From NCBI GenBank assembly GCA_014859605.1, contig JACUTW010000002.1, forward strand, positions 17,711 to 81,710: a stretch of 64,000 nt of DNA, given 5' to 3'. The notes under the pieces were generated by a model that ran no database searches, had not been told where the DNA came from, and was given only the letters and a program-made list of their open reading frames with translations. This DNA comes from Desulfuromonadales bacterium (lineage in GTDB: Bacteria > Desulfobacterota > Desulfuromonadia > Desulfuromonadales > UBA2197). Position numbers and translations under genes: made by a program. Positions 2,489 through 64,000 of this stretch are shown one piece after another (position 1 is the first letter of the stretch; the number at the start of each line of letters is the position of its first letter).

Positions 2489-2519
2489 GACGCACTTTTT
2501 CTTCGATGGGAATGGAACG

Positions 2520-26912: not shown

Positions 26913-26985
26913 GGGGAGCCTCGCGGGAATAGAATGGCCGGAGTATTTCACAGGCGGGGGAAAAGGTAAAAAGGTTTTGTCAGGT

Positions 26986-27025
26986 TAACTCCCCTCCTGC
27001 CTGAGGAGGGGCTGGGGGTGGTCAG
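26986..27025. repeat. third copy of the REP-like hairpin element
   Basis: ACTCCCCTCCT-gcctg-AGGAGGGGCTGGGGGTGGTCAG, same orientation as copy B at 22796-22836. Lies 74 nt upstream of the polA start. Confidence 0.75.
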
Positions 27026-27162
27026 TTCAGATTTTCTTAGCGAGAGAGGGGGGACGCTGCTTGTTATTTTTCTATTGAGTGAAAATTCGGGGACATTCTC
27101 TTTGACGTTTCCTGTAAAGGCTGTTATCGTTTTCGAAAGAGTGTAATCACTGGAGGTGTATT

Positions 27163-27408
27163 ATGGTCAGAACTCAAATCCAATTACCAGAAGAACAGGT
27201 CTCGACCCTTAAAAATCTTGCCACGCAGCAACATACTTCGATGGCAGAACTGATCCGCAGGGCGATCGATATGTTTACCGCGTCAACGGATACGGTGAGC
27301 CTGCAAGATCATCGCCAACGGGCATTGGCGGCAGCTGGGAAGTTCCGTTCCGGGCATGGCGACCTCTCTGCCAAGCATGACCACTATCTCGCCGAGGTTT
27401 ACAAATGA
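27163..27408 (+). CDS. vapB: ribbon-helix-helix (CopG-like) antitoxin
   Basis: 81 aa. MVRTQIQLPEEQVSTLKNLA...MAELIRRAID RHH pattern. 4-nt overlap with the downstream PIN gene. Confidence 0.75.
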   Translation: MVRTQIQLPEEQVSTLKNLATQQHTSMAELIRRAIDMFTASTDTVSLQDHRQRALAAAGKFRSGHGDLSAKHDHYLAEVYK

Positions 27409-27809
27409 AGAGGATCTTCATCGATACCTCTGCCTTTCTCGCCGTCCTTGACGCCGACGATGACTATCACTCCTCGGCAAAGAGCGCATGGGGTGAGATA
27501 CTGACATCCGGATCTCTGTTGGTGGCCAGTAATTACATTCTGATTGAAACCTTTGCTCTGGTACAGAATCGGCTGGGACTTCAGGCGATCAGAGCCTTTC
27601 AGGAAGACATCGTCCCGCTCCTCTCGATCCGGTGGGTCGATGCATCCATTCATGCCGCTGCGACTAGTGCCTTGCTGGCGGCCAACAGAAAGAAGCTCAG
27701 TTTGGTCGATTGTGTTTCGTTCGAAGTCATGCGCCATGCGGCCATCAAGTCGGTCTTTACCTTTGACCGCCATTTTCAGGAGCAGGGTTTTGTCTGTGTG
27801 CCGAAATAA
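27405..27809 (+). CDS. vapC: PIN-domain ribonuclease toxin
   Basis: 134 aa. MKRIFIDTSAFLAVLDADD (first acidic PIN residue), later D/E positions (LVDCVSFEVM, FTFDRHF). Confidence 0.85.
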   Translation: MKRIFIDTSAFLAVLDADDDYHSSAKSAWGEILTSGSLLVASNYILIETFALVQNRLGLQAIRAFQEDIVPLLSIRWVDASIHAAATSALLAANRKKLSLVDCVSFEVMRHAAIKSVFTFDRHFQEQGFVCVPK

Positions 27810-27890
27810 TCACCGAAACACCGATGATTTACTCTCCACAGAGGAAAAGCACTTATCGCTAGGTCGCATTCTCAGGAGAACAGAGAAAAC

Positions 27891-28916
27891 ATGACGAAAC
27901 CTCAAAAACTCCAGATCCGAAACAGCACGGCGGAATTTCTGATTTTTTCCCGACAAGCTGGTGAAAATACCATCGAAGTGCGCGTTGAAGATGAGACCGT
28001 CTGGCTGACGCAAAAGCTGATGGCAGTGCTGTTTGAAGTCGATGTGCGGACGGTCAATGAGCATTTGAGCAATATCTATCAATCGGGTGAAGTGCTTCGG
28101 GATGCAACTATCCGGAAATTCCGGATAGTTCAAAAAGAAGGAGAGCGGGAGGTGTCGCGAACTGTCGATTTTTACAGCCTCGACGCCATTATCTCCGTCG
28201 GCTTTCGCGTCAACTCGGCGCGAGCCACCCAGTTTCGCCAGTGGGCCACCGGTATTTTGCGCGATTTCGCCATCCGGGGTTATGTCCTGGACAAGGAGCG
28301 CCTCAAGAACGGGCAGTTCTTCAGCCAGGAGTATTTTGATGCCCTGATCGCTGAAATTCGCGAGATTCGCGCCAGCGAGCGAAAGTTCTACCAAAAGATC
28401 ACAGACATTTATGCCACGGCCATGGATTACCGCGCCGATAGCGAAACGACCCGTACCTTTTTTGCCACGGTTCAGAACAAGCTTCATTTTGCCATACACG
28501 GACAGACGGCTGCCGAGCTGATCGTCAAACGTGCCGACCACAAGAAAGAACGGATGGGGCTGACTTCCTGGAAGAACGCTCCGGACGGCAAGATTATCAA
28601 AACCGATGTGGTCGTTGCCAAGAACTATCTGAACGAAAAAGAGCTGAAATCTCTCGATCGTTTTGTCACCATGTATCTCGACTACGCCGAAGATCAGGCC
28701 GAGCGCAACATCCCCATGACCATGGCGGATTGGGCGAGCAAGCTAAATGCCTTTCTCCAGTTCAATGAACGGGAGATCCTCGACAATCCTGGAAAAGTCA
28801 CCCAGGAAATTGCTAAAGCCTTTGCTGAAAGTGAATTTGAAAAGTTTCGGGTCGTTCAGGATCGGCTTTTTGAGTCAGATTTTGACAAACAAATCAGGCT
28901 GTTGCTGAAAAAATAA
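27891..28916 (+). CDS. rhuM: RhuM-family (virulence/Fic-DOC-associated) protein
   Basis: 341 aa. N-terminal IEVRVEDETVWLTQKLMAVLFEVDVRTVNEHLSNIY and FRQWAT..LRDFAIRGYVLD blocks are characteristic of the RhuM family. Confidence 0.8.
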   Translation: MTKPQKLQIRNSTAEFLIFSRQAGENTIEVRVEDETVWLTQKLMAVLFEVDVRTVNEHLSNIYQSGEVLRDATIRKFRIVQKEGEREVSRTVDFYSLDAIISVGFRVNSARATQFRQWATGILRDFAIRGYVLDKERLKNGQFFSQEYFDALIAEIREIRASERKFYQKITDIYATAMDYRADSETTRTFFATVQNKLHFAIHGQTAAELIVKRADHKKERMGLTSWKNAPDGKIIKTDVVVAKNYLNEKELKSLDRFVTMYLDYAEDQAERNIPMTMADWASKLNAFLQFNEREILDNPGKVTQEIAKAFAESEFEKFRVVQDRLFESDFDKQIRLLLKK

Positions 28917-39773: not shown

Positions 39774-40556
39774 TCAGGGTTTTTCTCCGATTTCGACCAG
39801 GGCGTAAGCGGAATGGTTGTGGATCGACTCAAAATTTTCACACTCGACCTGAAACCAGAAGATCTCCTTCACCGTCGCCAGCTTCTCGGTCAACGCCCGG
39901 ACAATATCCTCGACGAACATCGGATGATCATAAGCCTGCTCGGTCACGGCCTTTTCGTCTTCGCGTTTGAGAACCGAATAGACCGGCGAGCTGGCGCACT
40001 CTTCCAGCCAGGTGACGAGATCTTCGATCCAGACGTGGCCGTGATAGCGGATATTGACGGTAAGGAGGCTACGCTGGTTGTGGGCGCCGCGGGCGCTGAT
40101 CTCTTTCGAGCAGGGACAGAGGGAGGTCACCGGCACGCTGACGCCGAGGACGAAATCTTGCGTCTCGCCGAGGGTGCCGACCATCCGGCACTGGTACTCC
40201 ATGAGGCCGCGGGCCCCGGAGACCGGCGCCGCCTTTTCGATGAAATAGGGAAATTCGAGTTCGAGATGGGCGCGGCTCGCTTCGAGGCGATCCTTCATCT
40301 CCTGGAGGATGGCGTCGATGCGGTCGACGCTGATCTCACCGTGATAAAGGTTGAGAATCTCGACAAAGCGGCTCATGTGCGTCCCCTTGAAGTGGTGGGG
40401 GAGATCGACGTACATGTTGACGCGGGCCACGGTATGTTGATAGCTGCTGTTCCGTTCGAGAACGACGATCGGGTAGCGGATATCCTTGACCCCGACCTTG
40501 TCGATGGGGATGTTGCGCGGGTCGAAACTCTTCTGCAGATCGGGCATATTCGTCAT
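39774..40556 (-). CDS. folE2: GTP cyclohydrolase I type 2 (FolE2/MptA)
   Basis: 260 aa. KVGVKDIRYPIVV, HMSRF and CPCSKEIS motifs are typical of FolE2. Confidence 0.9.
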   Translation of the reverse strand: MTNMPDLQKSFDPRNIPIDKVGVKDIRYPIVVLERNSSYQHTVARVNMYVDLPHHFKGTHMSRFVEILNLYHGEISVDRIDAILQEMKDRLEASRAHLELEFPYFIEKAAPVSGARGLMEYQCRMVGTLGETQDFVLGVSVPVTSLCPCSKEISARGAHNQRSLLTVNIRYHGHVWIEDLVTWLEECASSPVYSVLKREDEKAVTEQAYDHPMFVEDIVRALTEKLATVKEIFWFQVECENFESIHNHSAYALVEIGEKP

Positions 40557-41983
40557 GAGTTAGCCTTTGTCATGTATCGCTGTTTGGAGCTATTAGGTTT
40601 GTCCGGGATCGTCATGATTAGCAGGCTTTTTTCAAGGAGGGGTTGAAGCACTTCGGATCGGAAATGTTCCCGATGTTTCATTCCTAAAAAAAGCTGAATT
40701 TCGCTTCGACTTCTCGCAATGCGGCAAAACTCAAGAACCAGTTCTTCTCGTTTGACTTGCTCGGTGACTTGCTCGGTGACTTGCTCGGTGACTTGCGGGG
40801 TAGCCACAAAGCTGGGAATAAAAACTGACACTCGGAATATCTGTTCTTCTTGCAGTAATGGGTCGTGACCGGCAAAGGCCTTGGCATACCGGAAAAGATT
40901 TCGCACCCCGGAGCCAAGCTCCTCGGCACGCTCCATCTCCTTGAACATTCGGGCAATGACCGGATTTTTTGGCGAGGGCGAAAAGTTCAGCGGATCGATC
41001 AATCCGCTGCCGTGAGGGTTGTTACTGTTTTCTGTGCTCACCCGGTCATGGTAAATGATCAATTTAGCCGGAAAGGGATTGAGATATTCACGGTGAATCA
41101 GCATGTTAGCAACAACTTCACGAAAAATACGGTCCCGCAGGCTGATGCGCAAATCGCCCTCCAGGTAGAAGGGATCGGCGACGTGCTTGGCCACAAACGC
41201 CATCAGGCGATCATAACTTTCGATCAAATTGGTGCGAATATCGTCGCGGTCATCGTAGCGATCGAGGTTATGTACACGCAAAATAGCATCGGTGCGGTGG
41301 TGGGGGACAACACTGAGAATCACCTCGTCCTGCCCGAAGAGCAGCACCGCTGCCATAGAGAAACCTTCCTGGCCGGTGAGGTAATCCTTCTGAAATAAAC
41401 GGGCGCTCTTGAGTAGGGACATATCATCAAGCTGCCCCCAGGGATGGTCAAAGCGTTGCAGGCGCACCAGCTTACGGACCCGTTCAATCAGGTCAGCGCG
41501 CAGATCGCCAAGTGTGACGAAAGGATAAATGCGGTTTTCGCTATAGGTGGTCTGTTTGCGCAAAAAGAGTTCTGAAACCTGTTGTGAATGGCTGGTGATA
41601 TCGAAATCACCCTCTTCGTTGCGGTCAAAGATGCGATTGTTGCAGGTGTGAACTTGAGAGCTTTCCGGCACGGAGAGGACCAGGACGATCCGCCCATCCA
41701 ACTCCACTTCTTCCGGAGCCAGATACATGGGGGGATTAATCTTTTGGCTATTATGAAGCGCCGTTACCAGGTCCGCCTTGATTCGCGCCACGGCATTCGG
41801 TTCGACACCGCAGACTGTGCCGTCATCGGCAACTCCCAGCAGTAACACTCCCCCTTGTCGGTTTAAAAAGGCGCAGATGGTTTCATAGACGTCCCGGTTC
41901 AGCTTCTCGTGGGACTGCTTGAATTCAAGCGTCAGTCCTTCTCCCTGACGAAGCAACTGTTCGAGGTGCAGGGGTGTCATCAA
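40553..41983 (-). CDS. AlbA_2 (Schlafen-like) DNA-binding domain + HATPase_c_4 ATP-binding protein with C-terminal wHTH
   Basis: [10 protein letters not shown]...[20 protein letters not shown] (AlbA_2). ANMLIHREY...[14 protein letters not shown] (HATPase_c_4-like). 4-nt overlaps with both queC and folE2. Visibly lower GC. Confidence 0.7.
40754..40796. repeat. 12-nt tandem repeat x3.6 (GACTTGCTCGGT) inside the AlbA_2 gene, encoding (QVTE)n
   Basis: Direct reading of 40754-40796. The protein shows [15 protein letters not shown]. Confidence 0.9.
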
Positions 41984-42686: not shown

Positions 42687-43013
42687 CTAACGATGGTGAT
42701 AGTTGCCGCGCCGCTCGCGATGGCTGCTGTCCGGTTCGTTGTGACAGCGGAAGCAGCGCTCATCCGAGAGGAGCTGCTGTTCGACCGGCGATGTTTCGGC
42801 AGGGAGGACCGATTCGTGCTGTTGCCAGGGCGGCTTGCCATCTTGCCCCGTCAACTGCACCGGAACGATGGTGGCGCGCCAATTGGCGCTGATTGCAACA
42901 GTATGACAGCGATCACAGCCGCCGGGCGGCGGGATCGCTGTCCAGGAACGGAACATGGCGCAGCCACTCAAGACAGCAACCAGCAAAATTACAGTAAATA
43001 GAAATACTTTCAT
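42687..43013 (-). CDS. small dihaem c-type cytochrome lipoprotein
   Basis: Start preferred at ATG 43013 ([18 protein letters not shown] lipobox). Two CXXCH motifs (CDRCH, CFRCH). 108 aa. Confidence 0.7.
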
Positions 43014-43148
43014 GCTTTTCTCCTTTTCCAGACAACCACTTGGTCTTGTATAGCACAGCGGGCGGCATGAGGAAAACCGTAAAACCATTGCTGAAAAACT
43101 TCACTTGTTGCTAGAATGCGCTCTTTCTTTTACTTTTCTGGAGTTTTC

Positions 43149-51008: not shown

Positions 51009-54000
51009 ATGAAACGGCTCGGACAAAAAATTTGTGTAGCAGTAGCGTTATCGCTGGCGTTTGTAGCCATATGGCACGATTCGGCGCAGGCCGCAATGCC
51101 GGTTATCAGCTCCCTTGGGCAAATCAAGAATAGTTCGGTTGTTACTCCGACCCGCATCGATGTTGATGCGGCCGGAACGATCTATCTTTGTGACGGTACT
51201 TTGAACGGGGTGGCGCGCTTTGATAAATATGGCAAAGCGCTTCAGGTTCTCAGGGGTGGATACAAGGTCAGGTCGAATGGTGTCGCTGTTACACCGGACG
51301 GAAGCCGTGTTTTTGTTTCTGTTTCCGAGCCGAACAGCGCTGTTGCCACTGCAGTTGCAGTCATTAACGGGTCTACTGGCGAGTTAATCGGCTATCTCGG
51401 TGGTGGTTTTGGCGAGTTTAAAGGGATTAGAGAGATTGACCTGGATGCGGCCGGAAATATCTATGTCGGTAATTACGATAAGGGCAAGACTGTCGCTACG
51501 GTCGCAGCCAATTTTGACACGACCGCTCAGATTGATGTTTATGATGGTGTCACCTACGCAAAGACACACTCCTTTGGTGCTCCCGCTTCGAATCTTGTCA
51601 ACGGCTATTATTTGCCTCTGGCCGGAGAGTTCGGTGAAATTGGCGGTTTGACGGTCGATGTTGTTAATCAGGAAGTCATCATCGCTGAGGGTTGGAATAA
51701 CAACGGGATTACCCGCGCGCAGGTTTTTTCTCTTGATGGAACATTGAAACGTCTCTTGACCGAGGCGGAAGTCTCCGGAACCCAGATTAACTGTAAGCCG
51801 GTGGGATTGACGGTCGATCCCACCGGTCGAGTTTACATGCTCAGTATTTTAACCAGTACCATTCATGCCTTTACCATTAATCCGGTGGTTCAGTATCTGG
51901 GGAAATTCACCAGTGGGACTCCTGACCCGGCTTATGATCCTATCACCGGGAAGGTTTATCCCTGGACGGTCGGGATGATTCCCTCCCCGGCTTTTGATGT
52001 GGTCTATGATTCTTTGACCAATCGTATCTTTGTCGTGACAGACGGTAACGGTATCCAGATCTTCTCGGTAGATGGTTCGACTAATCCGGTAAAGACCAAT
52101 AATGCTCCTGAAGCACCGGCTCTGATCAGCCCTGTTCAGGACGTTGTCGTCGCCACACTAACCCCGACTCTGCAGTGGTCGGCGGCCGTAGATGCAGATA
52201 ATGATGTTCTTTCCTACAATGTTCAGATCATGGCGTTAGATGGCACGATCGTCAGCAGTAACTCTAATATTGCAGCGACCAGTCATCCGGTTGCCGCCGG
52301 TAAATTGGTTGAAAATAGCTGGTACACCTGGCAGGTTCAGGCCGCTGATGCCGAGTTGACTTCGCCCTACAGTGCTGTCGGGAGTTTTTGGGTCAATGCG
52401 GTTGAGGAAGCGCCGACCGCAGCGCTCCTCCTTTCACCCGACAACGCTACCAGGGCCGACAAGGATACAATTTTCAGTTGGCAGGCGGCAACGGATGCCG
52501 ACCCCTTGAGCTCAATCAGTTACCGTTTGGAAATTGCCCGAAATGCGGATTTCACCGCACCAATCATCAGGATTGAACAGAGCGGGCTTAGCAGTGCCCC
52601 TCTGTCGACTTTGCCCGGTTATGACGACCTGCAATCCGGGACCACCTACGACTGGCGAGTTGTTGCAGTTGACAATAGTGCTAGCCGCTTGATCTCAACC
52701 AGTGCTGTCCGCTCCTTCTTTAGTAACAGCGCCCCCGAAATTCCGGTGATGCTCAGTCCGCTTCAGGGTGACGAAGTTGCAACCTTGACGCCGGATTTGC
52801 AGTGGGCGGCCCCTGTCGATGCCGATGGCGACACCCTGCGTTACAATGTCAGGATCGTTGATGCTGCCGGCGTGGTCGTGAGTACCAACAACTCTGTTGC
52901 GACGACAAACTTTATGGTTACGGGCGGAGTTCTCCTTGAAAACAATCAATATGGCTGGCAGGTCCAGGCCGATGATGGCAAGCTCACCTCTGACTTTAGC
53001 GAAATTAAATACTTCTGGGTCAATGCCGTTGAGGAGGCGCCGACCGCGCCAGCCCTTGACGCTCCGGCAGCTGTAATCAATGCTGACAAGGACACGACTT
53101 TTCATTGGCAGGCAGCAAGCGATCCTGATCCCCTTGCCTTCATCAGTTACCGTCTGGAAATTGCCCGGGATAGCGATTTCGCGACGCCAGTGATTGTTGT
53201 TGAGCAAGCGGAACTCTTCAGTGCCGTCCTCTCAGAAATGGCCGGTTATGACGACTTACAGGCGAATACAACGTACCAATGGCGTGTTCTTGCTATTGAT
53301 AATACCGGCTTGAGTACAGCGAGCGAAGTTCGCGCATTGACTTATGTCAGTACGATTCTGACGATTGACGCCACCTTCCCCGGCGCCAAAGTCTATCTCG
53401 GCGGCAATAGCGCTTATAGTGGTCGCTATGTTGGCGAAGTGCCGGTGGCGCTACGCGACATCGATCCCGGAACGATCGAAGTTGTTGTCGAACTTGCCGG
53501 TTTTGAACCGTGGATCAAAAGTGTTGTTGTGAACCAGTGGCAGGGTGTTGTTGTGACTGCCGACCTCGTCGTCGCCATTCTCCCCGGCGAGTTCAAGAAG
53601 GCCTCCCTGTTCGCCGGTGGTGTAAAGATTCAGGGCGGGCCTGAGGCTGCCCCGGTGCTTGTCGATTTCGATAGTGACGGAATCGATGATCTTCTCGTTG
53701 CCGATGGCAGCGGAAAACTCCTTCTCTACAAAGGGCTGGCCGGAGATGTCTGGTCGCTGGCGGCCGCTGTTCAGCTCCCGGGGGTGACTCTCCCTGTCGG
53801 TGCTGTTCCTTTTGTTGCTGATTGGAATAATGACAATCGGAAAGACCTCCTGGTCGGAGCCGCGGATGGTTCGGTCTCTCTTGCTCTCAATGTCGGGACA
53901 CAGGAATCGCCGGTCTTTGCCGCACTCATCTCGTTGCAGGCTGACAATGCTCCCTTGAGTGTCGGCAGCAATGCCGCCCCGCTCCTTTTTGATCTTGACG

Positions 54001-54710
54001 CTGACGGTGCTAAAGATCTTCTGGTCGGGAGTGGCGATGGTACACTCTACAGCTTCCGCAATATCGGTAGTGATGCGACCCCGGTCTTTGCGGCCCGCGA
54101 AGTGCTGATTGCCGCCGCTGCCGGCGCCTCGAATGCTTCAGCGCTTGTGTCGGATTGGGATGCGGATGGCAGTAAAGAGATCCTCCTCGCGGCAAATCAG
54201 GAAATTGCTTTGTATGAGCGTCAAGATGACGCTTATGTTAAAGGGGATCCTCTCCTCGTTCATCAGTCTCTCTATAATACTCGCTTGCGTTCATACGAAA
54301 TGCAGAGCAGCAGCTTCGGCGAAAAAATCCGTATGATTGCAGCTAATCCGGATGGCAAGTTTGGCAAAGACTTGCTGATAGGCAATGCCGCCGGAGAAAT
54401 TTTGTTGGCAAATTCGACGATGAATAAATCGCGGGCGATCTCTCCTCATTTTGATCTGGCATTAATGGCAACGGTCGCTGAAATCGAAGCACTGATTCAG
54501 GAGAATAGCTTGAACACGCCACTGCTCACCTTGACCTTGAGTCAGTTAAAGACGAATATTCAGTCACAGGCTGTCAATAAGTTGAAGAGCTACGATAAAG
54601 CCAAACAAAATGTGCTCTCTATGCAGTCCGCACTGCAAGAAAACACGGAAATTTCCGCAGTCATCAGTAAACTGCAGACCCAACTGAACAGCAAGATTCC
54701 TTTGAAATAA
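51009..54710 (+). CDS. secreted 1233-aa multidomain protein: NHL-like beta-propeller + 2x(approx. 209 aa) FN3/Ig-like tandem + PEGA + five FG-GAP/VCBS repeats + helical tail
   Basis: TAGGAGG RBS. Signal peptide ...WHDSAQA. NHL-like blades (IDVDAAGTIYLCD, IDLDAAGNIYVGN, LTVDPTGRVYMLS). PEGA-like ILTIDATFPGAKVYLGG...VVVELAGFEPW. FG-GAP repeats (VDFDSDGIDDLLVADGSGKLLLY, FDLDADGAKDLLVGSGDGTLYSF, etc.). Confidence 0.8.
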   Translation: MKRLGQKICVAVALSLAFVAIWHDSAQAAMPVISSLGQIKNSSVVTPTRIDVDAAGTIYLCDGTLNGVARFDKYGKALQVLRGGYKVRSNGVAVTPDGSRVFVSVSEPNSAVATAVAVINGSTGELIGYLGGGFGEFKGIREIDLDAAGNIYVGNYDKGKTVATVAANFDTTAQIDVYDGVTYAKTHSFGAPASNLVNGYYLPLAGEFGEIGGLTVDVVNQEVIIAEGWNNNGITRAQVFSLDGTLKRLLTEAEVSGTQINCKPVGLTVDPTGRVYMLSILTSTIHAFTINPVVQYLGKFTSGTPDPAYDPITGKVYPWTVGMIPSPAFDVVYDSLTNRIFVVTDGNGIQIFSVDGSTNPVKTNNAPEAPALISPVQDVVVATLTPTLQWSAAVDADNDVLSYNVQIMALDGTIVSSNSNIAATSHPVAAGKLVENSWYTWQVQAADAELTSPYSAVGSFWVNAVEEAPTAALLLSPDNATRADKDTIFSWQAATDADPLSSISYRLEIARNADFTAPIIRIEQSGLSSAPLSTLPGYDDLQSGTTYDWRVVAVDNSASRLISTSAVRSFFSNSAPEIPVMLSPLQGDEVATLTPDLQWAAPVDADGDTLRYNVRIVDAAGVVVSTNNSVATTNFMVTGGVLLENNQYGWQVQADDGKLTSDFSEIKYFWVNAVEEAPTAPALDAPAAVINADKDTTFHWQAASDPDPLAFISYRLEIARDSDFATPVIVVEQAELFSAVLSEMAGYDDLQANTTYQWRVLAIDNTGLSTASEVRALTYVSTILTIDATFPGAKVYLGGNSAYSGRYVGEVPVALRDIDPGTIEVVVELAGFEPWIKSVVVNQWQGVVVTADLVVAILPGEFKKASLFAGGVKIQGGPEAAPVLVDFDSDGIDDLLVADGSGKLLLYKGLAGDVWSLAAAVQLPGVTLPVGAVPFVADWNNDNRKDLLVGAADGSVSLALNVGTQESPVFAALISLQADNAPLSVGSNAAPLLFDLDADGAKDLLVGSGDGTLYSFRNIGSDATPVFAAREVLIAAAAGASNASALVSDWDADGSKEILLAANQEIALYERQDDAYVKGDPLLVHQSLYNTRLRSYEMQSSSFGEKIRMIAANPDGKFGKDLLIGNAAGEILLANSTMNKSRAISPHFDLALMATVAEIEALIQENSLNTPLLTLTLSQLKTNIQSQAVNKLKSYDKAKQNVLSMQSALQENTEISAVISKLQTQLNSKIPLK
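52098..53352 (+). repeat. in-frame tandem duplication (period about 627 nt) within the 1233-aa protein gene
   Basis: NNAPEAPALISPVQDVVVATLTPTLQWSAAVDADNDVLSYNVQI... is repeated as SNSAPEIPVMLSPLQGDEVATLTPDLQWAAPVDADGDTLRYNVRI... Both units end with a second module (FWVNAVEEAPTA...ISYRLEIAR..DF). Confidence 0.85.
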
Positions 54711-55642: not shown

Positions 55643-58600
55643 ATGCGCTTTCATGAAAATTTACTTGGTATAGTCCTGGCCATAAGTTTGTGTTTACCCC
55701 TGTCTGCCTTTGCAGCCAAAGTACATGATCAGGGATGTAATAACTGTCATCGGAGTGGCGCTAATCCCCGCACCTTAGCGAATCTGTGTACTCCCTGTCA
55801 TCTCTCCTTTGGATTAACAAAAGCGAGTGCCGCCTTGGGGAGTCATCCCTCTCCTCCAGAACCAATCTCCGGCGCAGAGACGGTCCATTTCTGGGGAGGA
55901 TCAACGACAACACAGCTAGAGGCGGGAGCAACCAATCCGCCGACGGCTTTTTATACCAGTCGCTATTCCATATCAAAAAACCGCGTGACCTGTACAATAT
56001 GCCACGATCCGCATGCTGATAAGGTCGTCAAGCCCACACTGCTTCGTGCCACAGCGGACGGAGACCTGATTTGCCAGCAATGTCACAGCAGCAGATTCGT
56101 TTCGAATGTCCCGGATACCAATGCCACCCTGACCCATCCCCTTGTCAGTGATTATGAAGCCTTTGCAGCCGCTAATCCGACTAAATACAAAACGCTGAGC
56201 AATTCAGCCAGCGGCGCTGTTCGTCTGGTTGCGGGTGATGTATCCTGTACCTCCTGTCATTCTCCGCACTTTGCAGACTCCTCCTCTGCGACAGAAGACG
56301 GTTTGTTAAATATTGCTGGACTGACTTCCGGAGACGGCTATCTCCTCCGTTCTGACGGTCCGCTCCGTACCGGCGCTAACCGCGACGGTGCTACCGGCAC
56401 GGGTCAGCTTCGCTCCAACCTCTGTCAGGCCTGTCATACTTACAAGATGCACGGAAAAGGTGGCAACCAGCAGATGATCGGTTGTCTCGACTGTCACGGT
56501 GGACATTCCTACAATAACGGAGCGATCAGCGCCTACGTTCTTGCCGGTAAGTCGCCGGATGCCGTACCGGTACGCGCCCTTCGTGCTCCGGCCGGGACAG
56601 CTCAGGTCACTTATGCGGCCTTTCCTGACGGCGGCAGTGTTAGAACCAAGTGGTCTGACAATACCAAGGGAACGGCTAACGGGTTCTGCGAAAAGTGTCA
56701 TGGTGATGTTCAGAATGATGGCCCTGGCGGACTTGGCAATATTGAACTTGAGCATTTGGAGGGCGGTTTAGCCGAATGTACCACTTGCCACAAACATGGT
56801 GAAACCACCTTCAGTTTTGCCAATGACGCAAACGCCGCCACCTGCGGCCAGTGTCATGGTTTCCCCCCTTATAAAAATATCAGCGGCTTCCGTAGCGAAA
56901 TCGGTGATGCGAATGACGGCGGCTGGGCGGATAACAATGTTGATTTGCCCCGCTATGGTTATACCGATAGCAGTCATTTCCTGGATGAATCAAAAGCCGG
57001 GCATAAAACCCATGCCGGCGCCAAACTGGCGGTGAATCCGGGTGAATGGTACTTTGTCGGCACCTCCGGCATCGACAACTGCAAACCTTGTCACGGTAAT
57101 CAGTCTGGCTCCCTCGCCGGCGGCCATCGTGTTCCGCTGTCAACCGATGCCAATACTTTCCGTGATGTTCATTTTGCTTCCACAGCAACTGTTGGTGGTT
57201 TGGTTCCCTCCTATAATACTGTTGCTCACAAGTGTGACAACACCTACTGTCACTCCAATGGTGGAAAACGCACTGGAGATGGACCGGTCCGCAGTTATGC
57301 TGCCCACACCACTCCGGCTTGGGTCGGCACCGGTGCTAACTACACCGCTGGCGGTTATGGTTCAATCTTCCTGCAACCGGTTGCAACCCGTTGCGCCGAC
57401 TGCCACGGGTACAGCGCAGCGACGATGACAGCACAGGGGAATTCGCCGGTACATAACGCCCATCTCGGCGCCGGTGCCACAGGGATCACTTACGAATGCG
57501 ACGTTTGTCATGTCGCAACGGCCGATAGCACAAGAGCATCAAAGCTGAAACTGGATGCGACCGATGGTCAAAAAGGTGGTAAACACGTCAACGGACAAAT
57601 CGAAGTCGGTTACAAAACCAGTGGTAACGCTTTGTTCGCGTCACTGGCAACTAATGCTGTCGGACCGAATTATGATCCTGTCACCGGTACCTGTTCTGTC
57701 TATTGTCACGATCCGGCTGATATCGGATTGACAGCAGATTGGGATGATACCACCGACATGCAGTGCGATACCTGTCACGGTGGTATCGCGACGGATACCT
57801 CTGCCAATGGCGGAATCGGGATCATCACCTCCGGATCTCATACCAGACACATCACCACCGCTAACGGTGGCCCCGGGCTTTCCTGTGAAGTCTGTCATGG
57901 CGCCAATACCACTGCCGGCACCCATAGCGGCCATCTCGACGGCATGAATAACATGGTGCCGCCGGTGGATGGTGTCAATTTCGCGGATGTCTGTGATGAA
58001 TGTCACGGCTATGACGCACAAGCCGGCGAAGTCAAACCAATCTGGGGAAATCCGGCGACAACCGACTGCGCCACCTGCCATTCCGGAACGCATAAGTCCT
58101 CGGGATGGGTCGGGGCACCGAATGCTCCACTCTTTGCGCTCGATCGCACGACTGGACATGGTCGTCCCGCCGCCAGCGGCAACTATCCGGTCACCGGCAA
58201 TGCGCCGGGTAACTCGGCCTGTCTCGATTGCCATGTCGCCACCGCCAGCGGTCACTTCAGCGGCGGGCTGGGTGATGCGCTGATGCTGCGCACCGACCTC
58301 GGCTTCCCGGCAACCTACAGCGGCAATGAAAATGCTTTCTGTGCCAACTGCCACGGCACCGCGCCGGCGCATCCGACCAAAACAGCCAGTGCCGCAACCC
58401 GCAATATCGGCACCCATGCGGCAAAGCGTTGCATCGGCTGTCATGACCTGCACGGCACAGCGAACATTCATATGGTCACGGAACTAAGGGCCACCCAGAA
58501 TGTCAAGGATAACTCCGCCACCGGTAAATATAGCGGCAACGTCTCCTTCCTGCAGATAACCGGTCTTAATTCCTACGACGAGGATGACGGGGAGGTTGGC

Positions 58601-61600
58601 GGCGCTGGTGAAGTCAACGCTGATGATATCTGCGCCACTTGTCATACCGTGGCTGGCGGCGTCCTGCACAACAACAGCAATAATTCGGCCGTTGATCACT
58701 TCCAGGGGAAAGATTGTATCACCTGTCACGGCAATCATCAGATCAGCGGCAATGCTTTCAAGGTCAGGCAGTGCGACGATTGTCACGGTGGTATCAGTAC
58801 TGATACTTCTGCAGACGGCGGAGTCGGGGTCATCACCACCGGTTCCCATACTCGTCACATTACCACCGCCAACGGCGGTCCGGGCCTGTCCTGCGACATC
58901 TGTCACGGCGCAAATGCAACAATCGGCACCCACCCCGGCCACATCGACGGCACAAATAACATGGTACCGACCAACTATCCGGCCAGCTTTGCCGATATCT
59001 GCGATGAGTGCCATGGCTATGACAACGAACCCGGCGAGGTCAAACCGATCTGGGGCTCCCCGGCAACCACCGATTGTGCCACCTGTCACGCCGGATCTCT
59101 GATCAGTGATGGCTGGCCCGGTGCAGCCAATCCCCCGACCTTTACCTTTGCCCGCACCAGCGGCCACGGACGTCTCCCGGCCAGCGGCACCTACCCGGTC
59201 TCCGGCAATGCCGCCGGTAACTCCAACTGTCTTGACTGCCATGTAGCGACGGGCAGTGGCCACTTTAGCGGCGGACTTGGCGATGCATTGATGCTGCGCA
59301 CCGACGTCGGCTTCCCGGCAACCTACACCGGCAACGAAAATATCTTCTGCGCCGCTTGCCATAGTGCGGCCCCGACCCATCCGACTAAATCGGCAACTGC
59401 CGCGACCCGCGGTATCACCACCCATGCGGGAAAAACCTGCATTGCCTGTCACGACCTGCATGGCACCGGCAATATCCAGATGGTGATTGCCTCGCAGACA
59501 GAGCAAAATACCAAAGACAATTCATCAAACGGTCAATATACCGGCAGTGTTTCGTTCCTGGCGATTACCGGCGCCAACTCCTATGACGAAGACGATGGTG
59601 CAGCCGGCGGTGCCGGAGAAATCAACGGCGACGATATCTGCGCCACCTGCCATCTCCTGGCAGAAGGGGTTACCCACAATAACAGCAATAATTCAACTGG
59701 TAACCATTACCAGGGTGAGGATTGCTTTACCTGTCATTCCGGCCACAAAAATGCGACCAACTCCTTCATCGCAGGTGCCGGTACGGCTTGTAACGATTGT
59801 CATGGCAACCCGCCGAATACTGGTGCGCACGGTACCGGCAGTAACAAACACACCCGGGTTTCGTCGAATGACCGAACCCTCGAAGATCTGACCGATTGTG
59901 CTTACTGTCACACCGGCGCGAACGATTACACCTACGATCTTGGCGCTGACCAAGGCGCCGTTGGTGCCCGCGCCAACCACGGCAGCGGCAATCGCGTCGC
60001 GGTCCTTGCCACGTCCATCGGTTACAGCCAGAGCGGTAACCTTTGGGGCTGCGCCAACGTTTGTCACACCTCGTCGGCAGCCGATAGTTTCTGGTTCGAT
60101 AAGAGTAGCGGCAGTGACCCGGCGACCTGGATCAAAGATACCAACGGCATTTCCTGTAATGCCTGCCACTTCTATGCGCCGACCGTTTCTGCGGCCAGTG
60201 TTCCGAACAATCTTTCGGATGTTCACGACGAGCACTTTGCCGCCGGCAAAGGGTGCGCCGAATGCCACCCGATGACCGGTGACTACAACAGCGGCGTCGG
60301 GCATGCAGGACCGTTGACCCATATCGACAGTTTCGATTTCGGTAGCGGTAAAGATGACAATGACGGCCTGGCCCTCGTCGATATGGCGCAGGCAACTCAG
60401 GATGAAGCCGGCTACGACAAAGGCGGCGGCGTTCGCGATGTCGTCCGTGCCGGGATGACCTATACCGATGCCAATACCTGCTCGGGCGGTATCGGTCTCG
60501 GTTGCCATGCCACCGGAGTTCCGGATTGGGATATTCCTATCCCCAACAACAATGCCGGTTGCCTGGAATGTCACACCGACACCAACAACGGCGCGGTTGG
60601 CAACCCTGTCTCCGGTATTCATGACAACAGTCCCAACGGCCCGACAGTCACCGGCGTCGCTCACGACGGCAGCTTCGATAACGGCAGCGGCGGAATTGCC
60701 GATTGCGTGACCTGCCACTCCCTTACCCCGACAGTTGTCGCTGCCAATCACATGAATGGCACCATCAACACCGGCACGGCGATCACCGTTCTCCCCATCG
60801 CCGGCTATAACCAGGCAACCAGCAGCTGTACAACTGCCTGCCACAGCGCTGGTACGGCCTGGGCTTACAAGTGGTCGTTGAGCGCATACGCTACCAACGG
60901 GACCGAGTGTGCCAACTGTCACGGTGACTATGCTACCGGTTGGGTCAGTGGCGTGGCGCCACATACCGAGAACCCGACCCGCGGCAGCAAGCACAACGCG
61001 ACCGGCAATTTGACCTATCCCTGCGCCGAATGTCATGGCATTGGATCTCCCGGCTACAAATGGACGACCATGTGGGATCCGACCGGCGCCACCAGCCATC
61101 ATGGCGACGACAAGATCACCATGAGCAATTCGGCAGTACATACTTTTGCCATCGACACCGCCCCGAACCCGGATCGTGCCGGCTGTACAACTACGAGTTG
61201 CCACGGCAACGACAGCTTGCACAACTTCCGCGTTACGACGACATCCCTGCCGACGGCAACAGTTACCGGCATCGAGGCGGCGATTCTCTGTTCAAGCTGT
61301 CACGGCGGTTATGTCGGCACCAATGCCAACGGCTACTGGCCGGACGGTGCCAACGCTGTCGATAATGGTAGCGAAGACAACAGTGGTGCCCACTTAAAGC
61401 ATATGGTCTATCTCGCGAAGTCGATCTACGATGAGGATCTTGCCGGGCTGCTGACCGATAATGGCAAGGGAGACGCTGATGCAAAACAGAAGGAACTCTG
61501 TTCCTACTGTCATAATGCGCCTGGTTCCGACGGTGACCATGGCCCGGTTGCCAGCCTGCCGGCCGAAGTCAATAGCATGTACAAAGGTTGGCTGCCGAAG

Positions 61601-64000
61601 ACCGCTGACAACGGCGTCTGGAGCGCCGCCAGCAAGACCTGTGCGACGGTCGATTGTCACTTTAACAAAACGACTCCGACAACCAACGACTGGTACGCCC
61701 CGCTTAACAACGGCAACTGCGCTATGTGCCATGTCGATGTGACGGTTGAAACCGCCCACACCAAACATACCTCGGCGGCGACCGCGACCACCTTCGGGCG
61801 CGCCTCCCTCTGCTCCGATTGCCATGAAGCCGCGACCAACTGGGGGACCAACACCGGTCCGGCCACAGGTCACATTGACGGTGTTTATACGGTCGCCGGC
61901 AGCAAAATGACCTCCTATGTCGGCTTTACTTATCCGGCGGTGAAGGGCACCTGCGGCACCAACGCTTGTCACAACAACGGCATTGGCGGCGCACCGATTA
62001 TCGATCCGGTCTGGGGAACGACGCAGGCAAACTGTACAATCTGTCACGCAGGCACCCCGGCGACCGGCACGCACGTCAAGCACATGAGCAACACGGCATG
62101 GGTGTCGGGTGGCTGCAGCGACTGTCACACCGACTCGACAGCTTCTGTAATATCGGCATCTACTCACATGGATGGCGTCCGTAACGCCGGCGGTAGCAAG
62201 AATGTTGTCAATAACGCCAACGGTTCCTGCACCAATACCTGCCATCTCTCTGCCGAGGCCGGGAACTGGACCGGCAACAGCAGCAATATTACTTGTACGG
62301 ACTGCCACAGCGGCAGCGGCGCGTCGGCTTATATCGGCGGCAACAAGACCAGCGTTGGCGGTCCCAACTACATGCCGCAGTACAACATGCACCTGACGGT
62401 TCCGACGGTCTCTGGCAAGGTCCATACGGCTGCCGGTCTTGCCACCGCCTGTACCACCTGCCACAGCAATCTCGCTGACAAGACCACCCACATGAACGGG
62501 GTCTGGACAGCAGATGATGCCGACAACACCAATGACCAGCACCGTGGTCTCTTTGCCGGCTTCACTGACGGGACGGTTCCGACCTGTAACACCGCCTGTC
62601 ACAGTGCCGGTGCCGCCTGGGCCTACAAGTGGTCCGCTACTGCCGGGGCGACGAACGGCACTCAATGCGATAACTGCCACGGTCGCTTCTCAACCGGCTT
62701 TAACGCCGGAGTTATGCACCAGCTCATGGACAGCCGTGGCAATAACGCGCATACCAACAGTGGCAACCTTGCTTATCCCTGTACCGACTGCCACGCGATC
62801 GGTGCCAGCAGCGGTAATTATCCCTTCGCCAATATCAGCAACGACTGGAAAGCGACCGACGCCGGTGCAACCACTCCACACGGCGATGGTTTCATCACCC
62901 TGAACAGCAACGGAACCACCTGGGCCCGCCTTGGCGGTCGCTCCGGTTGCTCTGCCTGCCACGCTGGCGCGACCGGTACGGCGAATAATTATGATTATCC
63001 GACAACTGCCTGGACGTCTCAAACGGTTCTCGGCGATCCGCCTGACGTGAGCGGCAGTTGCACCGCCTGCCATGGCGGCGCGGAATACTGGCCAGACGGC
63101 ACAGTCGCTCCGGATCGTACCGGAAAACATTCCGCCCATGTCCACGCCATTGCGGTTCAACTCGGCGGCGACACGGCGGGGAATCGTAACGCAACCTGTT
63201 CCTATTGCCACCCCAATCCAGGTGAATCCGGGCACAATGACGGCGGCTCGGCCGAAGTCGGACTGTTCAAGAATATCCTCACCGGCGCCTTTACCGATCC
63301 TGACGGGGTCCTCAATACTGCCGACTCAACCTGCAGTCTGGTCGATTGCCACTTTAATAATGCCGTCACTCCGCATTGGTATACCGACATCTATCCGCCG
63401 GCACAGGTGACCTTGACCGCCACCACCGGTGTTGCTGCCAAGCCGCGTTCGATCAATGTCAGTTGGACCTCGCCGGGTGATGACGCTAACGTCGCCAACA
63501 CCACGGTGCACCGTTACGATATGCGTTACGGTACCAGCAGCGCGATTGCCAGCGATTTTGGTCGTACGGACAATTATGCTGGCGGGTTACCTTTGGCTTA
63601 TGCCCAGGGGACGCTCCAGGATGTCACTATTGATAACCTGACGCCGGGAACGACCTACTACTTCAGCCTGCGCAGTCAGGATGTTGCCGGTAACTGGTCA
63701 ACGCCATCCGCTGTCGTCAGCGCCGTGGCGAGCGGTGATACGGTTGTACCGTACTTCGGTGGCGTCAACCGTGCGGCCAAGGCCGATGAATCACAAACCA
63801 TCAATGTCGAATGGTCGCCGGCTGAAGACCACACCATGCCGATCACCTACAAGATCTGGGTCAAGCCGGTTTCGTCCGGTGCCCTTGATATGGATATTGA
63901 TGCACCGCTGTTGACCGGCGTCAAAGGCTACAAGTACCAATTGACCTCTGCCAACGGCGTCGTCAATGACATGATTTATCAGGTTGGTGTGCGTGCTTGT
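55643..64000 (+). CDS. giant multihaem c-type cytochrome, 3' end beyond the window (at least 2,786 codons); NOT in the supplied ORF table
   Basis: Frame +2 is open from ATG 55643 to 64000, with an in-frame TGA at 55625-27 and AGGAG at 55629-33. Frame checked at 56762, 57764, 60002 and 63002. Signal MRFHENLLGIVLAISLCLPLSAFA. Hand count is 52 CXXCH + 11 CX3/4/7CH. FN3-like modules from about 63395. No other +2-frame ORF appears in the table for this span. Confidence 0.9.
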   Translation, partial: MRFHENLLGIVLAISLCLPLSAFAAKVHDQGCNNCHRSGANPRTLANLCTPCHLSFGLTKASAALGSHPSPPEPISGAETVHFWGGSTTTQLEAGATNPPTAFYTSRYSISKNRVTCTICHDPHADKVVKPTLLRATADGDLICQQCHSSRFVSNVPDTNATLTHPLVSDYEAFAAANPTKYKTLSNSASGAVRLVAGDVSCTSCHSPHFADSSSATEDGLLNIAGLTSGDGYLLRSDGPLRTGANRDGATGTGQLRSNLCQACHTYKMHGKGGNQQMIGCLDCHGGHSYNNGAISAYVLAGKSPDAVPVRALRAPAGTAQVTYAAFPDGGSVRTKWSDNTKGTANGFCEKCHGDVQNDGPGGLGNIELEHLEGGLAECTTCHKHGETTFSFANDANAATCGQCHGFPPYKNISGFRSEIGDANDGGWADNNVDLPRYGYTDSSHFLDESKAGHKTHAGAKLAVNPGEWYFVGTSGIDNCKPCHGNQSGSLAGGHRVPLSTDANTFRDVHFASTATVGGLVPSYNTVAHKCDNTYCHSNGGKRTGDGPVRSYAAHTTPAWVGTGANYTAGGYGSIFLQPVATRCADCHGYSAATMTAQGNSPVHNAHLGAGATGITYECDVCHVATADSTRASKLKLDATDGQKGGKHVNGQIEVGYKTSGNALFASLATNAVGPNYDPVTGTCSVYCHDPADIGLTADWDDTTDMQCDTCHGGIATDTSANGGIGIITSGSHTRHITTANGGPGLSCEVCHGANTTAGTHSGHLDGMNNMVPPVDGVNFADVCDECHGYDAQAGEVKPIWGNPATTDCATCHSGTHKSSGWVGAPNAPLFALDRTTGHGRPAASGNYPVTGNAPGNSACLDCHVATASGHFSGGLGDALMLRTDLGFPATYSGNENAFCANCHGTAPAHPTKTASAATRNIGTHAAKRCIGCHDLHGTANIHMVTELRATQNVKDNSATGKYSGNVSFLQITGLNSYDEDDGEVGGAGEVNADDICATCHTVAGGVLHNNSNNSAVDHFQGKDCITCHGNHQISGNAFKVRQCDDCHGGISTDTSADGGVGVITTGSHTRHITTANGGPGLSCDICHGANATIGTHPGHIDGTNNMVPTNYPASFADICDECHGYDNEPGEVKPIWGSPATTDCATCHAGSLISDGWPGAANPPTFTFARTSGHGRLPASGTYPVSGNAAGNSNCLDCHVATGSGHFSGGLGDALMLRTDVGFPATYTGNENIFCAACHSAAPTHPTKSATAATRGITTHAGKTCIACHDLHGTGNIQMVIASQTEQNTKDNSSNGQYTGSVSFLAITGANSYDEDDGAAGGAGEINGDDICATCHLLAEGVTHNNSNNSTGNHYQGEDCFTCHSGHKNATNSFIAGAGTACNDCHGNPPNTGAHGTGSNKHTRVSSNDRTLEDLTDCAYCHTGANDYTYDLGADQGAVGARANHGSGNRVAVLATSIGYSQSGNLWGCANVCHTSSAADSFWFDKSSGSDPATWIKDTNGISCNACHFYAPTVSAASVPNNLSDVHDEHFAAGKGCAECHPMTGDYNSGVGHAGPLTHIDSFDFGSGKDDNDGLALVDMAQATQDEAGYDKGGGVRDVVRAGMTYTDANTCSGGIGLGCHATGVPDWDIPIPNNNAGCLECHTDTNNGAVGNPVSGIHDNSPNGPTVTGVAHDGSFDNGSGGIADCVTCHSLTPTVVAANHMNGTINTGTAITVLPIAGYNQATSSCTTACHSAGTAWAYKWSLSAYATNGTECANCHGDYATGWVSGVAPHTENPTRGSKHNATGNLTYPCAECHGIGSPGYKWTTMWDPTGATSHHGDDKITMSNSAVHTFAIDTAPNPDRAGCTTTSCHGNDSLHNFRVTTTSLPTATVTGIEAAILCSSCHGGYVGTNANGYWPDGANAVDNGSEDNSGAHLKHMVYLAKSIYDEDLAGLLTDNGKGDADAKQKELCSYCHNAPGSDGDHGPVASLPAEVNSMYKGWLPKTADNGVWSAASKTCATVDCHFNKTTPTTNDWYAPLNNGNCAMCHVDVTVETAHTKHTSAATATTFGRASLCSDCHEAATNWGTNTGPATGHIDGVYTVAGSKMTSYVGFTYPAVKGTCGTNACHNNGIGGAPIIDPVWGTTQANCTICHAGTPATGTHVKHMSNTAWVSGGCSDCHTDSTASVISASTHMDGVRNAGGSKNVVNNANGSCTNTCHLSAEAGNWTGNSSNITCTDCHSGSGASAYIGGNKTSVGGPNYMPQYNMHLTVPTVSGKVHTAAGLATACTTCHSNLADKTTHMNGVWTADDADNTNDQHRGLFAGFTDGTVPTCNTACHSAGAAWAYKWSATAGATNGTQCDNCHGRFSTGFNAGVMHQLMDSRGNNAHTNSGNLAYPCTDCHAIGASSGNYPFANISNDWKATDAGATTPHGDGFITLNSNGTTWARLGGRSGCSACHAGATGTANNYDYPTTAWTSQTVLGDPPDVSGSCTACHGGAEYWPDGTVAPDRTGKHSAHVHAIAVQLGGDTAGNRNATCSYCHPNPGESGHNDGGSAEVGLFKNILTGAFTDPDGVLNTADSTCSLVDCHFNNAVTPHWYTDIYPPAQVTLTATTGVAAKPRSINVSWTSPGDDANVANTTVHRYDMRYGTSSAIASDFGRTDNYAGGLPLAYAQGTLQDVTIDNLTPGTTYYFSLRSQDVAGNWSTPSAVVSAVASGDTVVPYFGGVNRAAKADESQTINVEWSPAEDHTMPITYKIWVKPVSSGALDMDIDAPLLTGVKGYKYQLTSANGVVNDMIYQVGVRAC
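57764..59788 (+). repeat. in-frame tandem duplication of a 336/339-codon, nine-CXXCH unit inside the giant cytochrome
   Basis: Unit 1 is 57764-58771 (QCDTCHGGIATDTSANGG...). Unit 2 is 58772-59788 (QCDDCHGGISTDTSADGG...). About three-quarters of residues are identical by eye. The same similarity shows in the antisense shadow ORFs 57641..58471 and 58484..59506. Confidence 0.85.

Follow-up and report, generated by a model that had tools for sequence, protein, structure and literature searches.

Tandem three-haem modules with lengthened first motifs in a giant, putatively wire-like cytochrome of a Desulfuromonadales bacterium

Cytochromes of the TIGR01904 / PF09698 type, known from Geobacter sulfurreducens and its relatives, combine a lengthened first haem motif with a CXXCH about 20 residues further on. 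The protein described here shares this arrangement; it also has a significant match to the profile, a common taxonomic neighbourhood with these cytochromes and public relatives that bear the family's name. However, many of its copies have CX3CH (in one case CX7CH) rather than CX4CH and fall below the profile cut-off when taken alone, the real repeat unit is longer, with three haems, a further CXXCH and an H-x-x-H, and, at a minimum of 2786 aa, the protein exceeds them by far in size.

Long, wire-like extracellular cytochromes with up to 87 haem motifs have been described in Desulfuromonadia (PMC11492766). They resemble the present protein in their tens of motifs, their predicted extracellular location and wire-like character, the inclusion of CX3CH and CX4CH in the haem-site count, and their occurrence outside porin-cytochrome operons, whereas the period-3 module grammar and spacer plasticity found here are not described in that survey of 84 genomes. 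Small bis-His multihaem units are also typical of the Desulfovibrio tetrahaem cytochrome c3 and of triheme c7 (PpcA, GSU1996), and c7-type units build longer chains by tandem repetition, as in GSU1996, but the order and spacing of the motifs are different. In cytochrome c3, two of the four haems sit at CX4CH motifs. The decahaem cytochromes MtrC/OmcA/MtrF and DmsE/MtrA are similar through a Pfam Mtrc-MtrF_II-IV_dom match (4.2e-45), weak DmsE-family matches and the role in extracellular electron transfer that we infer here; nevertheless, these matches lie mainly in an upstream, all-CXXCH decahaem repeat (aa 706-1388) and outside the array. Elsewhere, lengthened motifs do carry haem: in MmcA, haem-peptide mass spectrometry demonstrated haem c at CX3CH and CX4CH (PMC11024163), and in the structure of hydrazine dehydrogenase (HDH) haem 3 is bound by CX4CH (PMC6469936).

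In the window (the whole 64-kb stretch of DNA analysed), translation of the frame containing the Cys codons gave a single uninterrupted ORF on the + strand, from an ATG to the window end and spanning 59789-63390. The window end cuts the gene, and 2786 aa is thus a lower bound on the protein length. Almost all Cys residues (126 of 128) are located in the 63 CXnCH motifs, and these motifs together with a signal-like N-terminus identify the product as a c-type cytochrome, that is, an exported protein with Cys-Xn-Cys-His motifs. No CXXCK or other catalytic-type motif occurs in the protein sequence. Pfam matches on the ORF include Cytochrome_C7, MtrC/MtrF II-IV, c3_2 (Cytochrom_c3_2) and fn3. The N-terminal segment MRFHENLLGIVLAISLCLPLSAFAA is a predicted Sec signal peptide; the equivalent N-terminus of the ortholog P0020 ends ..VHA/AK. 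A lipoprotein anchored through Cys17 was considered from the sequence and dropped, the L-S-L-C context being no fit to a lipobox. Three antisense ORFs (509, 428 and 181 aa) crossing 59789-63390 gave no match in a family search and were dropped as shadows of the + strand gene.

The sequence-only reading had described an array at 59789-63390 in which CX3CH or CX4CH sites alternate with one to three CXXCH. Every variant motif that it listed was found at its Cys codon (Table 1), and both the array and the alternation stand. The number of intervening CXXCH does not, since exactly two follow a variant site, and variant sites of the same type also occur upstream of the array. The region (aa 1383-2583) contains 30 sites, namely 21 CXXCH, 4 CX3CH, 4 CX4CH and 1 CX7CH. 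In 2000 residue shuffles of the region, the number of CX3-4CH sites averaged 0.29 and reached at most 3, versus 8 observed. The grammar is [CX3-7CH, CXXCH, CXXCH] repeated nine times, plus a tenth unit with a plain CXXCH in the first slot.

Table 1. Coordinates of the giant cytochrome gene, its modules and its upstream neighbours (window positions; numbers in brackets after motifs are Cys codons; bit scores refer to TIGR01904)
Feature	Coordinates	Strand	Remarks
Secreted haem-free protein, 1233 aa	51009-54710	+	fn3, Ig-like, PEGA, FG-GAP (Pfam and sequence)
Secreted tetrahaem cytochrome, 265 aa	54725-55522	+	doubled-CXXCH type; upstream neighbour
Giant multihaem c-type cytochrome gene	55643-64000	+	at least 2786 aa; 63 CXnCH sites; cut by window end
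Predicted Sec signal peptide MRFHENLLGIVLAISLCLPLSAFAA	55643-55717	+	read from sequence; likely A-F-A cleavage site
Two TIGR01904 modules, CDNTYCH (57233) and CSVYCH (57692)	57113-57907	+	segments 29.5 and 44.9 bits, cut-off 27
Tandemly duplicated decahaem unit (336 aa)	57758-59806	+	all CXXCH; end abuts the 59789-63390 array
Triheme module CANVCH (60050), CNACH, CAECH	59930-60277	+	11.4 bits, below cut-off; hhalign 97.6% to m684, 95.1% to m2104
Triheme module CSGGIGLGCH (60479), CLECH, CVTCH	60359-60727	+	CX7CH first slot; no match when scanned alone; hhalign 99.0% to m2196
Triheme module CTTACH (60827), CANCH, CAECH	60707-61045	+	opens second-order repeat copy A; 24.0 bits, below cut-off 27; hhalign 100% to m2315
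Triheme module CTTTSCH (61184), CSSCH, CSYCH	61064-61522	+	hhalign 100% to m2436, 95.7% to m2104
Triheme module CATVDCH (61640), CAMCH, CSDCH	61520-61834	+	28.3 bits, passes
Triheme module CGTNACH (61952), CTICH, CSDCH	61832-62137	+	most canonical copy; 40.4 bits (profile positions 1-72 of 73), passes; holds the PF09698 stretch
Triheme module CTNTCH (62228), CTDCH, CTTCH	62108-62473	+	no match when scanned alone; hhalign 96.9% to m2104, 99.0% to m1613
Triheme module CNTACH (62585), CDNCH, CTDCH	62465-62803	+	opens second-order repeat copy B; 15.3 bits, below cut-off
Triheme module CSACH (62948), CTACH, CSYCH	62828-63220	+	plain first slot; paralog of CTTTSCH module (offset-585 repeat; hhalign m1848-m2436 100%)
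CSLVDCH (63332), last first-slot site	63212-63352	+	haem array ends; paralog of CATVDCH
Fibronectin type III domain	63404-63712	+	3' of haem array; Pfam fn3 1.4e-7, aa 2599-2690

Alignment of the modules revealed the shared pattern H-x-[ND]-G ... C-Xn-CH ... W ... CXXCH ... H-x-x-H ... CXXCH. Besides the motif His, each unit has three conserved His, which fits three bis-His haems per module. The region has 37 non-motif His for its 30 motifs. In both family alignments (A1 and A2), the invariant columns are the motif Cys and His, the three additional His per module and one Trp; the Cys/His columns of the CATVDCH module are invariant in both.

The TIGRFAMs family suggested in the sequence-only reading was recovered by profile search: NCBIfam TIGR01904.2 ('CxxxxCH/CxxCH domain c-type cytochrome'; cut-off 27 bits) matches the whole protein in four stretches, with a score of 60 bits (E 1.4e-16). 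When eight of the nine variant modules, from CANVCH (60050) to CNTACH (62585), were scanned alone, two passed, four scored below the cut-off (24.0, 15.3, 12.7 and 11.4 bits) and two were unmatched. Profile-profile comparison linked the low-scoring modules to the high-scoring modules with 92-99% probability over 56-95 columns, values that are inflated by the common haem motifs, since short alignments to some control segments already gave 64-79%. Pfam PF09698 (GSu_C4xC__C2xCH) matched aa 2103-2135 over its full length (model positions 1-36 of 36) with 18.8 bits, just under its gathering threshold of 21.7; several relatives have a precomputed match to it, and the JGI/NCBI name of the closest public relatives is 'CxxxxCH...CXXCH cytochrome family protein'. 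NCBIfam nanowire_3heme scored 12.8 bits on one module, versus a cut-off of 40. Sequence and profile searches of the PDB returned generic multihaem matches only (NrfA, OcwA, MtrF; E 1e-7 or worse). AlphaFold2 models reached a pLDDT of 40.5 (aa 1958-2275, 15 aligned sequences; unusable) and 58.8, both too poor to support a closely packed haem chain, and Foldseek gave no match in the PDB.

Longer-range repetition was confirmed at two levels. The second-order repeat of 1758 nt noticed in the DNA is present at 60826-60876 and 62584-62634 (82% identity), and in the protein aa 1719-1900 and aa 2304-2484 are 40% identical (E 1.5e-31) at an offset of 585 aa. Likewise, the recurrence of CATVDCH as CSLVDCH extends over aa 1943-2018 and aa 2509-2580 with 41% identity. 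The copies of the upstream decahaem unit lie 336 aa (1008 nt) apart, with 70-75% of their amino acids and 71-76% of their nucleotides identical; this unit is single-copy in the orthologs P0020 and L001p. Beyond the array, a Pfam match to Pur_ac_phosph_N (aa 2588-2687) overlaps the fn3 stretch, and beta-rich sequence continues past fn3 to the window end. In the orthologs, the array is followed by fn3 domains and then by about 12 additional haem sites; the full protein would probably have about 75.

Colinear orthologs are 3597-3803 aa long. All 30 sites (aa 1383-2564) are positionally conserved in L001p and L003p, which are 56-60% identical overall, while the spacer length drifts at some sites, for example from CX3CH to CX8CH at aa 1729. 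The first-slot variants among paralogs and orthologs include a conserved CX7-8CH '..G[IL]GCH' loop, and the CX7/CX8 first slot is retained in L001p, L003p, P0001 and P0020. Across 163 relatives, 1275 stretches separate one variant site from the next, and 1045 of these (82%) contain exactly two CXXCH; the first-slot spacer ranged from 2 to 12. The relatives, from Geobacteraceae/Desulfuromonadales MAGs, have 2500-4446 aa and 48-111 sites, with the maximum of 111 in P0021.

In the window, the giant gene is accompanied by UvrC, by a haem-free protein with fn3 and FG-GAP domains and by the 265-aa tetrahaem cytochrome. The last of these may be co-transcribed with the giant gene, as the 120-nt gap between them suggests. 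The 1233-aa fn3/FG-GAP protein was rejected as a fixed partner because it is missing beside the L005 ortholog. No porin-like gene adjoins the giant gene within the window (upstream side), and the locus does not resemble a porin-cytochrome conduit of the Mtr/Pcc type; nor does any secretion gene adjoin it within the window. A Pfam search of about 30 ORFs in the window identified no ResB, CcsA or Ccm haem-lyase gene, and none was found beside the closest ortholog.

Based on the above results, we suggest that the array is likely the central section of a giant Sec-exported multihaem c-type cytochrome of a Geobacteraceae-like bacterium, acting as a haem wire for extracellular electron transfer. It would consist of about ten tandem diverged copies of a three-haem module of roughly 100-150 aa, each comprising a TIGR01904 domain and one additional CXXCH. 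The first haem of each module would be attached through the lengthened Cys-Xn-Cys-His spacer (n = 3, 4 or 7; 2 in one copy), and the second and third through ordinary CXXCH. The distal ligands are proposed to be the His of H-x-[ND]-G ahead of the first site and the two His of H-x-x-H between the second and third sites, which would make all three haems bis-His, low-spin and suited to electron transfer. Placed in series, the modules could bring about 30 haems into a continuous chain, and the whole protein may work in extracellular electron transfer as an extended wire within one molecule or as a store of electrons. Haem attachment is presumably carried out by the organism's System II (ResB/ResC-type) machinery.

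The Cys, Cys and His of each site are invariant across the orthologs. Like the precedents in MmcA and HDH, this supports haem attachment at the variant sites indirectly, and the conservation argues strongly for occupancy. It is very improbable that the CX3-7CH sites are haem-free, serving as structural disulfides or metal sites with haem at CXXCH only. The CX7CH loop does exceed the well-documented short variants in length, but all aligned relatives keep, at each variant site, the His after the second Cys, and a disulfide needs no such His. Moreover, each module offers one extra conserved His per site, the variant site included, the paralogous module at aa 2436 has a plain CXXCH in the same slot, and CX3CH and CX4CH are proven haem sites elsewhere (MmcA and hydrazine dehydrogenase). 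A use other than conduction, either as a multi-electron store (capacitor) or with one or more catalytic, open-coordination haems, appears improbable to us. Storage is one of the two roles proposed for very-many-haem cytochromes (PMC11492766), and sequence alone does not separate it from conduction; on the other hand, there are enough His to make all haems six-coordinate, catalytic-type motifs such as CXXCK are absent, and no enzyme family matched, with NrfA and DmsE scores far below cut-off (DmsE 63 bits versus 192).

Haem at the variant sites may still require a dedicated lyase, for which System II ResB/ResC paralogs from another part of the genome are the candidates, although we regard this as rather unlikely. 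Wolinella provides precedents in CcsA1 for CX15CH and NrfI for CXXCK (reviewed in PMC12285233), and four ResB-like/ResC-like pairs, reported as being of undetermined purpose, occur both in Geobacter sulfurreducens and in G. metallireducens (PMC2700814). The extra pairs adjoin large cytochromes whose haem numbers are listed as a range (GSU0702, 26-35; OmcH, 19-24; OmcG, 14-18; PMC2700814 supplement), and we read these ranges as non-canonical motifs counted or not. Against this stand the lack of ResB, CcsA and Ccm genes in the window and beside the closest ortholog, and the Methanosarcina MmcA, in which CX3CH and CX4CH are matured with no dedicated lyase reported in the available part of the paper (PMC11024163). 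In addition, the length of the first-slot spacer is free to vary from 2 to 12 residues where positions are homologous, which a tolerant general lyase would accommodate more easily than a motif-specific one.

The array is a well-formed, ordinary example of a known Geobacter domain family and reveals no new kind of system. Giant Geobacter-type cytochromes, a poorly studied class, gain a very large member, and their building block can be described more sharply, as a three-haem unit with a first-site spacer of 2-12 and one conserved, putatively distal His per haem. The module definition helps to count haems correctly in genome surveys, in which about a quarter of the sites is missed by counting CXXCH only. 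It also helps in choosing constructs for structure determination and in testing haem-lyase specificity in System II organisms. At one homologous site, the first slot, the Cys-to-Cys spacer varies from 2 to 12 among paralogs and orthologs; more tentatively, all these forms might be haem-loaded. If so, haem attachment in Geobacteraceae would be unusually spacer-tolerant, or this module would have its own specialised pair among the four ResB/ResC pairs, and the family would lend itself naturally to testing how motifs are read by haem lyases.

The gene of the giant multihaem cytochrome was read without a break from its ATG to the window end (at least 2786 codons), and its product starts with what looks like a signal peptide, MRFHENLLGIVLAISLCLPLSAFAA. 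The translation contains 63 CXnCH sites (52 CXXCH, five CX3CH, five CX4CH and one CX7CH), which account for 126 of the 128 cysteines; the other two lie in the signal peptide and in the final codon of the window. In the variant-rich region, eight CX3-4CH sites were observed, against a mean of 0.29 in residue shuffles of the region. Every variant motif listed in the sequence-only reading was recovered in the translated frame at its coordinate. Antisense ORFs of 509, 428 and 181 amino acids over the region lack any family match and were rejected as shadows.

Based on the NCBIfam search, the whole protein matches TIGR01904.2 ('CxxxxCH/CxxCH domain c-type cytochrome') with 60 bits (cut-off 27), so the TIGRFAMs family named in the sequence-only reading is this one. 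The short Pfam model PF09698 stayed just under its threshold (18.8 vs 21.7 bits). The single-module scan covered 10 of the 11 variant-site modules, leaving out the CSLVDCH site at amino acid 2564 (Table).

Table. Coordinates of the features in the window and in the giant cytochrome (amino acids counted from its ATG), with single-module TIGR01904 scores
Feature	Window (nt)	Amino acid	Location	Content or result
Fic/DOC, PIN-like, RhuM-family, Schlafen-AlbA2/Fic-like genes	23021-28916; 40553-41983		among housekeeping genes	
Small ORF	42687-43088 (-)		between queC and class A penicillin-binding protein gene	at most 133 aa; two CXXCH
1233-aa secreted haem-free protein	51009-54710		directly 5' of cytochrome genes	repeated fn3/Ig-like units, PEGA domain, FG-GAP repeats
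Giant cytochrome gene	from 55643 (+)			
Module, CDNTYCH	57233	531	5' of region	29.5 bits, passes; best or near-best in protein
Module, CSVYCH	57692	684	5' of region	44.9 bits, passes; best or near-best in protein
Decahaem unit, two copies	57758-58789; 58766-59806		5' of region	336 aa, all CXXCH
Variant-rich region	59789-63390	1383-2583		
Module		1470	inside region	11.4 bits, below cut-off
Module, CX7CH		1613	inside region	no hit
Module		1729	inside region	24.0 bits, below cut-off
Module		1848	inside region	12.7 bits, below cut-off
Module		2000	inside region	28.3 bits, passes
Module		2104	inside region	40.4 bits, passes
Module, CTNTCH		2196	inside region	no hit
Module		2315	inside region	15.3 bits, below cut-off

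When profiles built for each module from relatives were compared with those of the passing modules, hhalign gave probabilities of 92-99% across 56-95 columns, and the CX7CH module aligned with the CTNTCH module at 99%. Other haem-rich segments of the protein, used as controls, mostly gave 6-79% and short alignments, but two decahaem-unit segments reached 94-98%, so that either shared motifs account for part of the hhalign values or the decahaem unit holds this module in a version whose first site is plain. These links between modules are thus supportive rather than decisive. The protein is a new, very large representative of an already known kind.

The spacer lengths along the protein run in the order 222222222224223222222222222222222223227223224224224223223222224. 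From amino acid 1470 onward, a variant site followed by two CXXCH is strictly repeated nine times. A tenth unit, a paralog of the CTTTSCH unit, has a plain CSACH in the first slot; CSLVDCH is the last site after it, and a fibronectin type III domain starts beyond. In place of the one to three CXXCH per variant site described in the sequence-only reading, the grammar is more exactly that of a three-haem module with two CXXCH after each variant. In the aligned modules, H-x-[ND]-G, about 25 residues, [ST]-C-Xn-C-H, 10-20 residues and W are followed by about 6 residues, C-x-x-C-H, about 8 residues, [ST]-G-x-H-x-x-H, 10-20 residues and C-x-x-C-H. The motif Cys and His, the Trp and three more His per module are invariant in the family alignments, and the region has 37 His besides its 30 motifs. 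Three haems and three spare conserved His per module fit the requirement for bis-His ligation of every haem, which we infer from this count.

Among the species-representative genomes scanned, colinear orthologs (52-54% identity) occur in two uncultured Geobacteraceae/Geobacter MAGs, whose loci are identical, and in a Desulfuromonadales MAG; a Desulfuromonadaceae MAG holds a more distant relative. In a three-way alignment (56-60% identity), all 30 sites between amino acids 1383 and 2564, including the nine variant sites, were positionally conserved. Their spacer length is not always retained: opposite CTTACH, one ortholog has eight residues between the two Cys, and at the CX7CH site every aligned ortholog has CX7 or CX8. 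E <= 1e-3 was reached by 282 relatives in a HMMER search of 1.84 billion cluster representatives and E <= 1e-30 by 75, with the ortholog P0020 (65% identical, 3673 aa, 66 sites) as the top match. Of the relatives from the first search, 19 were checked, and CXnCH sites accounted for nearly all of their Cys. Across 163 relatives, spacers of 2 (4284 sites), 3 (367), 4 (881) and 5-12 residues (189) occur, and 1045 of 1275 variant-to-variant intervals contain exactly two CXXCH; the building block of the family is thus a three-haem unit in which the first spacer varies. Members reach 4446 aa and 111 sites, and all five that were looked up came from metagenomes. One metagenomic relative (P0021, ENA; 4091 aa) has 111 sites (83 CXXCH, 5 CX3CH, 20 CX4CH and 3 longer), whereas the maximum in a Desulfuromonadia survey is 87 (PMC11492766).

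The C-terminus of the cytochrome lies beyond the end of the window. The orthologs run about 1100-1200 aa further, a stretch that holds fn3 domains and about 12 additional haem sites. Many giant relatives share a conserved C-terminal tail, GGWNK[VS][TS]PW (P0020, L001:11387-11411 and L003:10766-10792 in related genomes, and others), and another group ends in C..CHT.LPK. The conserved tail may serve in sorting or in the recognition of a partner.

The proposed second-order repeat proved real. Amino acids 1719-1900 and 2304-2484 are 40% identical at an offset of 585 aa, 1943-2018 and 2509-2580 are 41% identical, and a 51-nt stretch recurs 1758 nt away with 82% DNA identity. This duplication is old, since P0020 shows the same site order. 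The tandem duplication of the decahaem unit (70-75% aa and 71-76% nt identity, spacing 1008 nt) is much younger. The unit is single in P0020 and in the L001 ortholog, so about 10 haems were gained recently in this genome's protein.

Upstream of the cytochrome gene lie genes for UvrC, the 1233-aa haem-free protein and a 265-aa tetrahaem cytochrome. The haem-free protein has no counterpart beside the ortholog in L005, another related locus. The remaining genes are housekeeping, including those for TatC, NadA, Mfd, SurA, cobalamin genes and PolA. Small insertions, either mobile or defence-related, may account for the Fic/DOC, PIN-like, RhuM-family and Schlafen-AlbA2/Fic-like genes. The small ORF has an internal Met followed by a lipoprotein-like signal (..LSGC) and is without a Pfam match. 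P0020 has different neighbours, a TPR protein and another giant cytochrome. A second giant cytochrome of the family adjoins the ortholog downstream in L001 (L001:11921-17269, at least 1783 aa) and upstream in L005 (L005:1-8065, 3288 aa); such genes tend to occur in tandem.

We suggest, as the best-supported reading, that the modules of the region would carry about 30 covalently attached haems, each bis-His ligated, as one section of a long chain for electron transfer within a cytochrome that is exported and probably extracellular. CX3CH and CX4CH are known to carry haem c: haem-peptide masses establish both in MmcA (PMC11024163), and haem 3 of hydrazine dehydrogenase is held by a CX4CH site in the solved structure (PMC6469936). 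The Desulfuromonadia survey counts both among known motifs and reports extracellular, wire-like cytochromes in which the number of motifs reaches 87 (PMC11492766). Two AlphaFold2 runs gave pLDDT of 40.5 and 58.8, a Foldseek search of the PDB returned nothing usable, and PDB sequence and profile searches yielded generic multihaem matches only.

A dedicated haem lyase for the variant sites, as the sequence-only reading had considered, seems rather unlikely to us. The idea is kept alive by Geobacter spp., in which System II proteins of the ResB/ResC type are at work; their genomes carry four such pairs, to which no purpose has been assigned, and the extra pairs adjoin large cytochromes for which a range of haem numbers is listed (PMC2700814). 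A Pfam search of about 30 ORFs found no ResB, CcsA or Ccm gene in the 64-kb window, and there is no haem lyase beside P0020 either. The spacer drifts freely at homologous sites, which argues more for a tolerant general lyase maturing the variant sites. The variable first slot of the three-haem module bears on haem-lyase tolerance: at this one homologous site, the lyase may accept anything from 2 to 12 residues between the two Cys.
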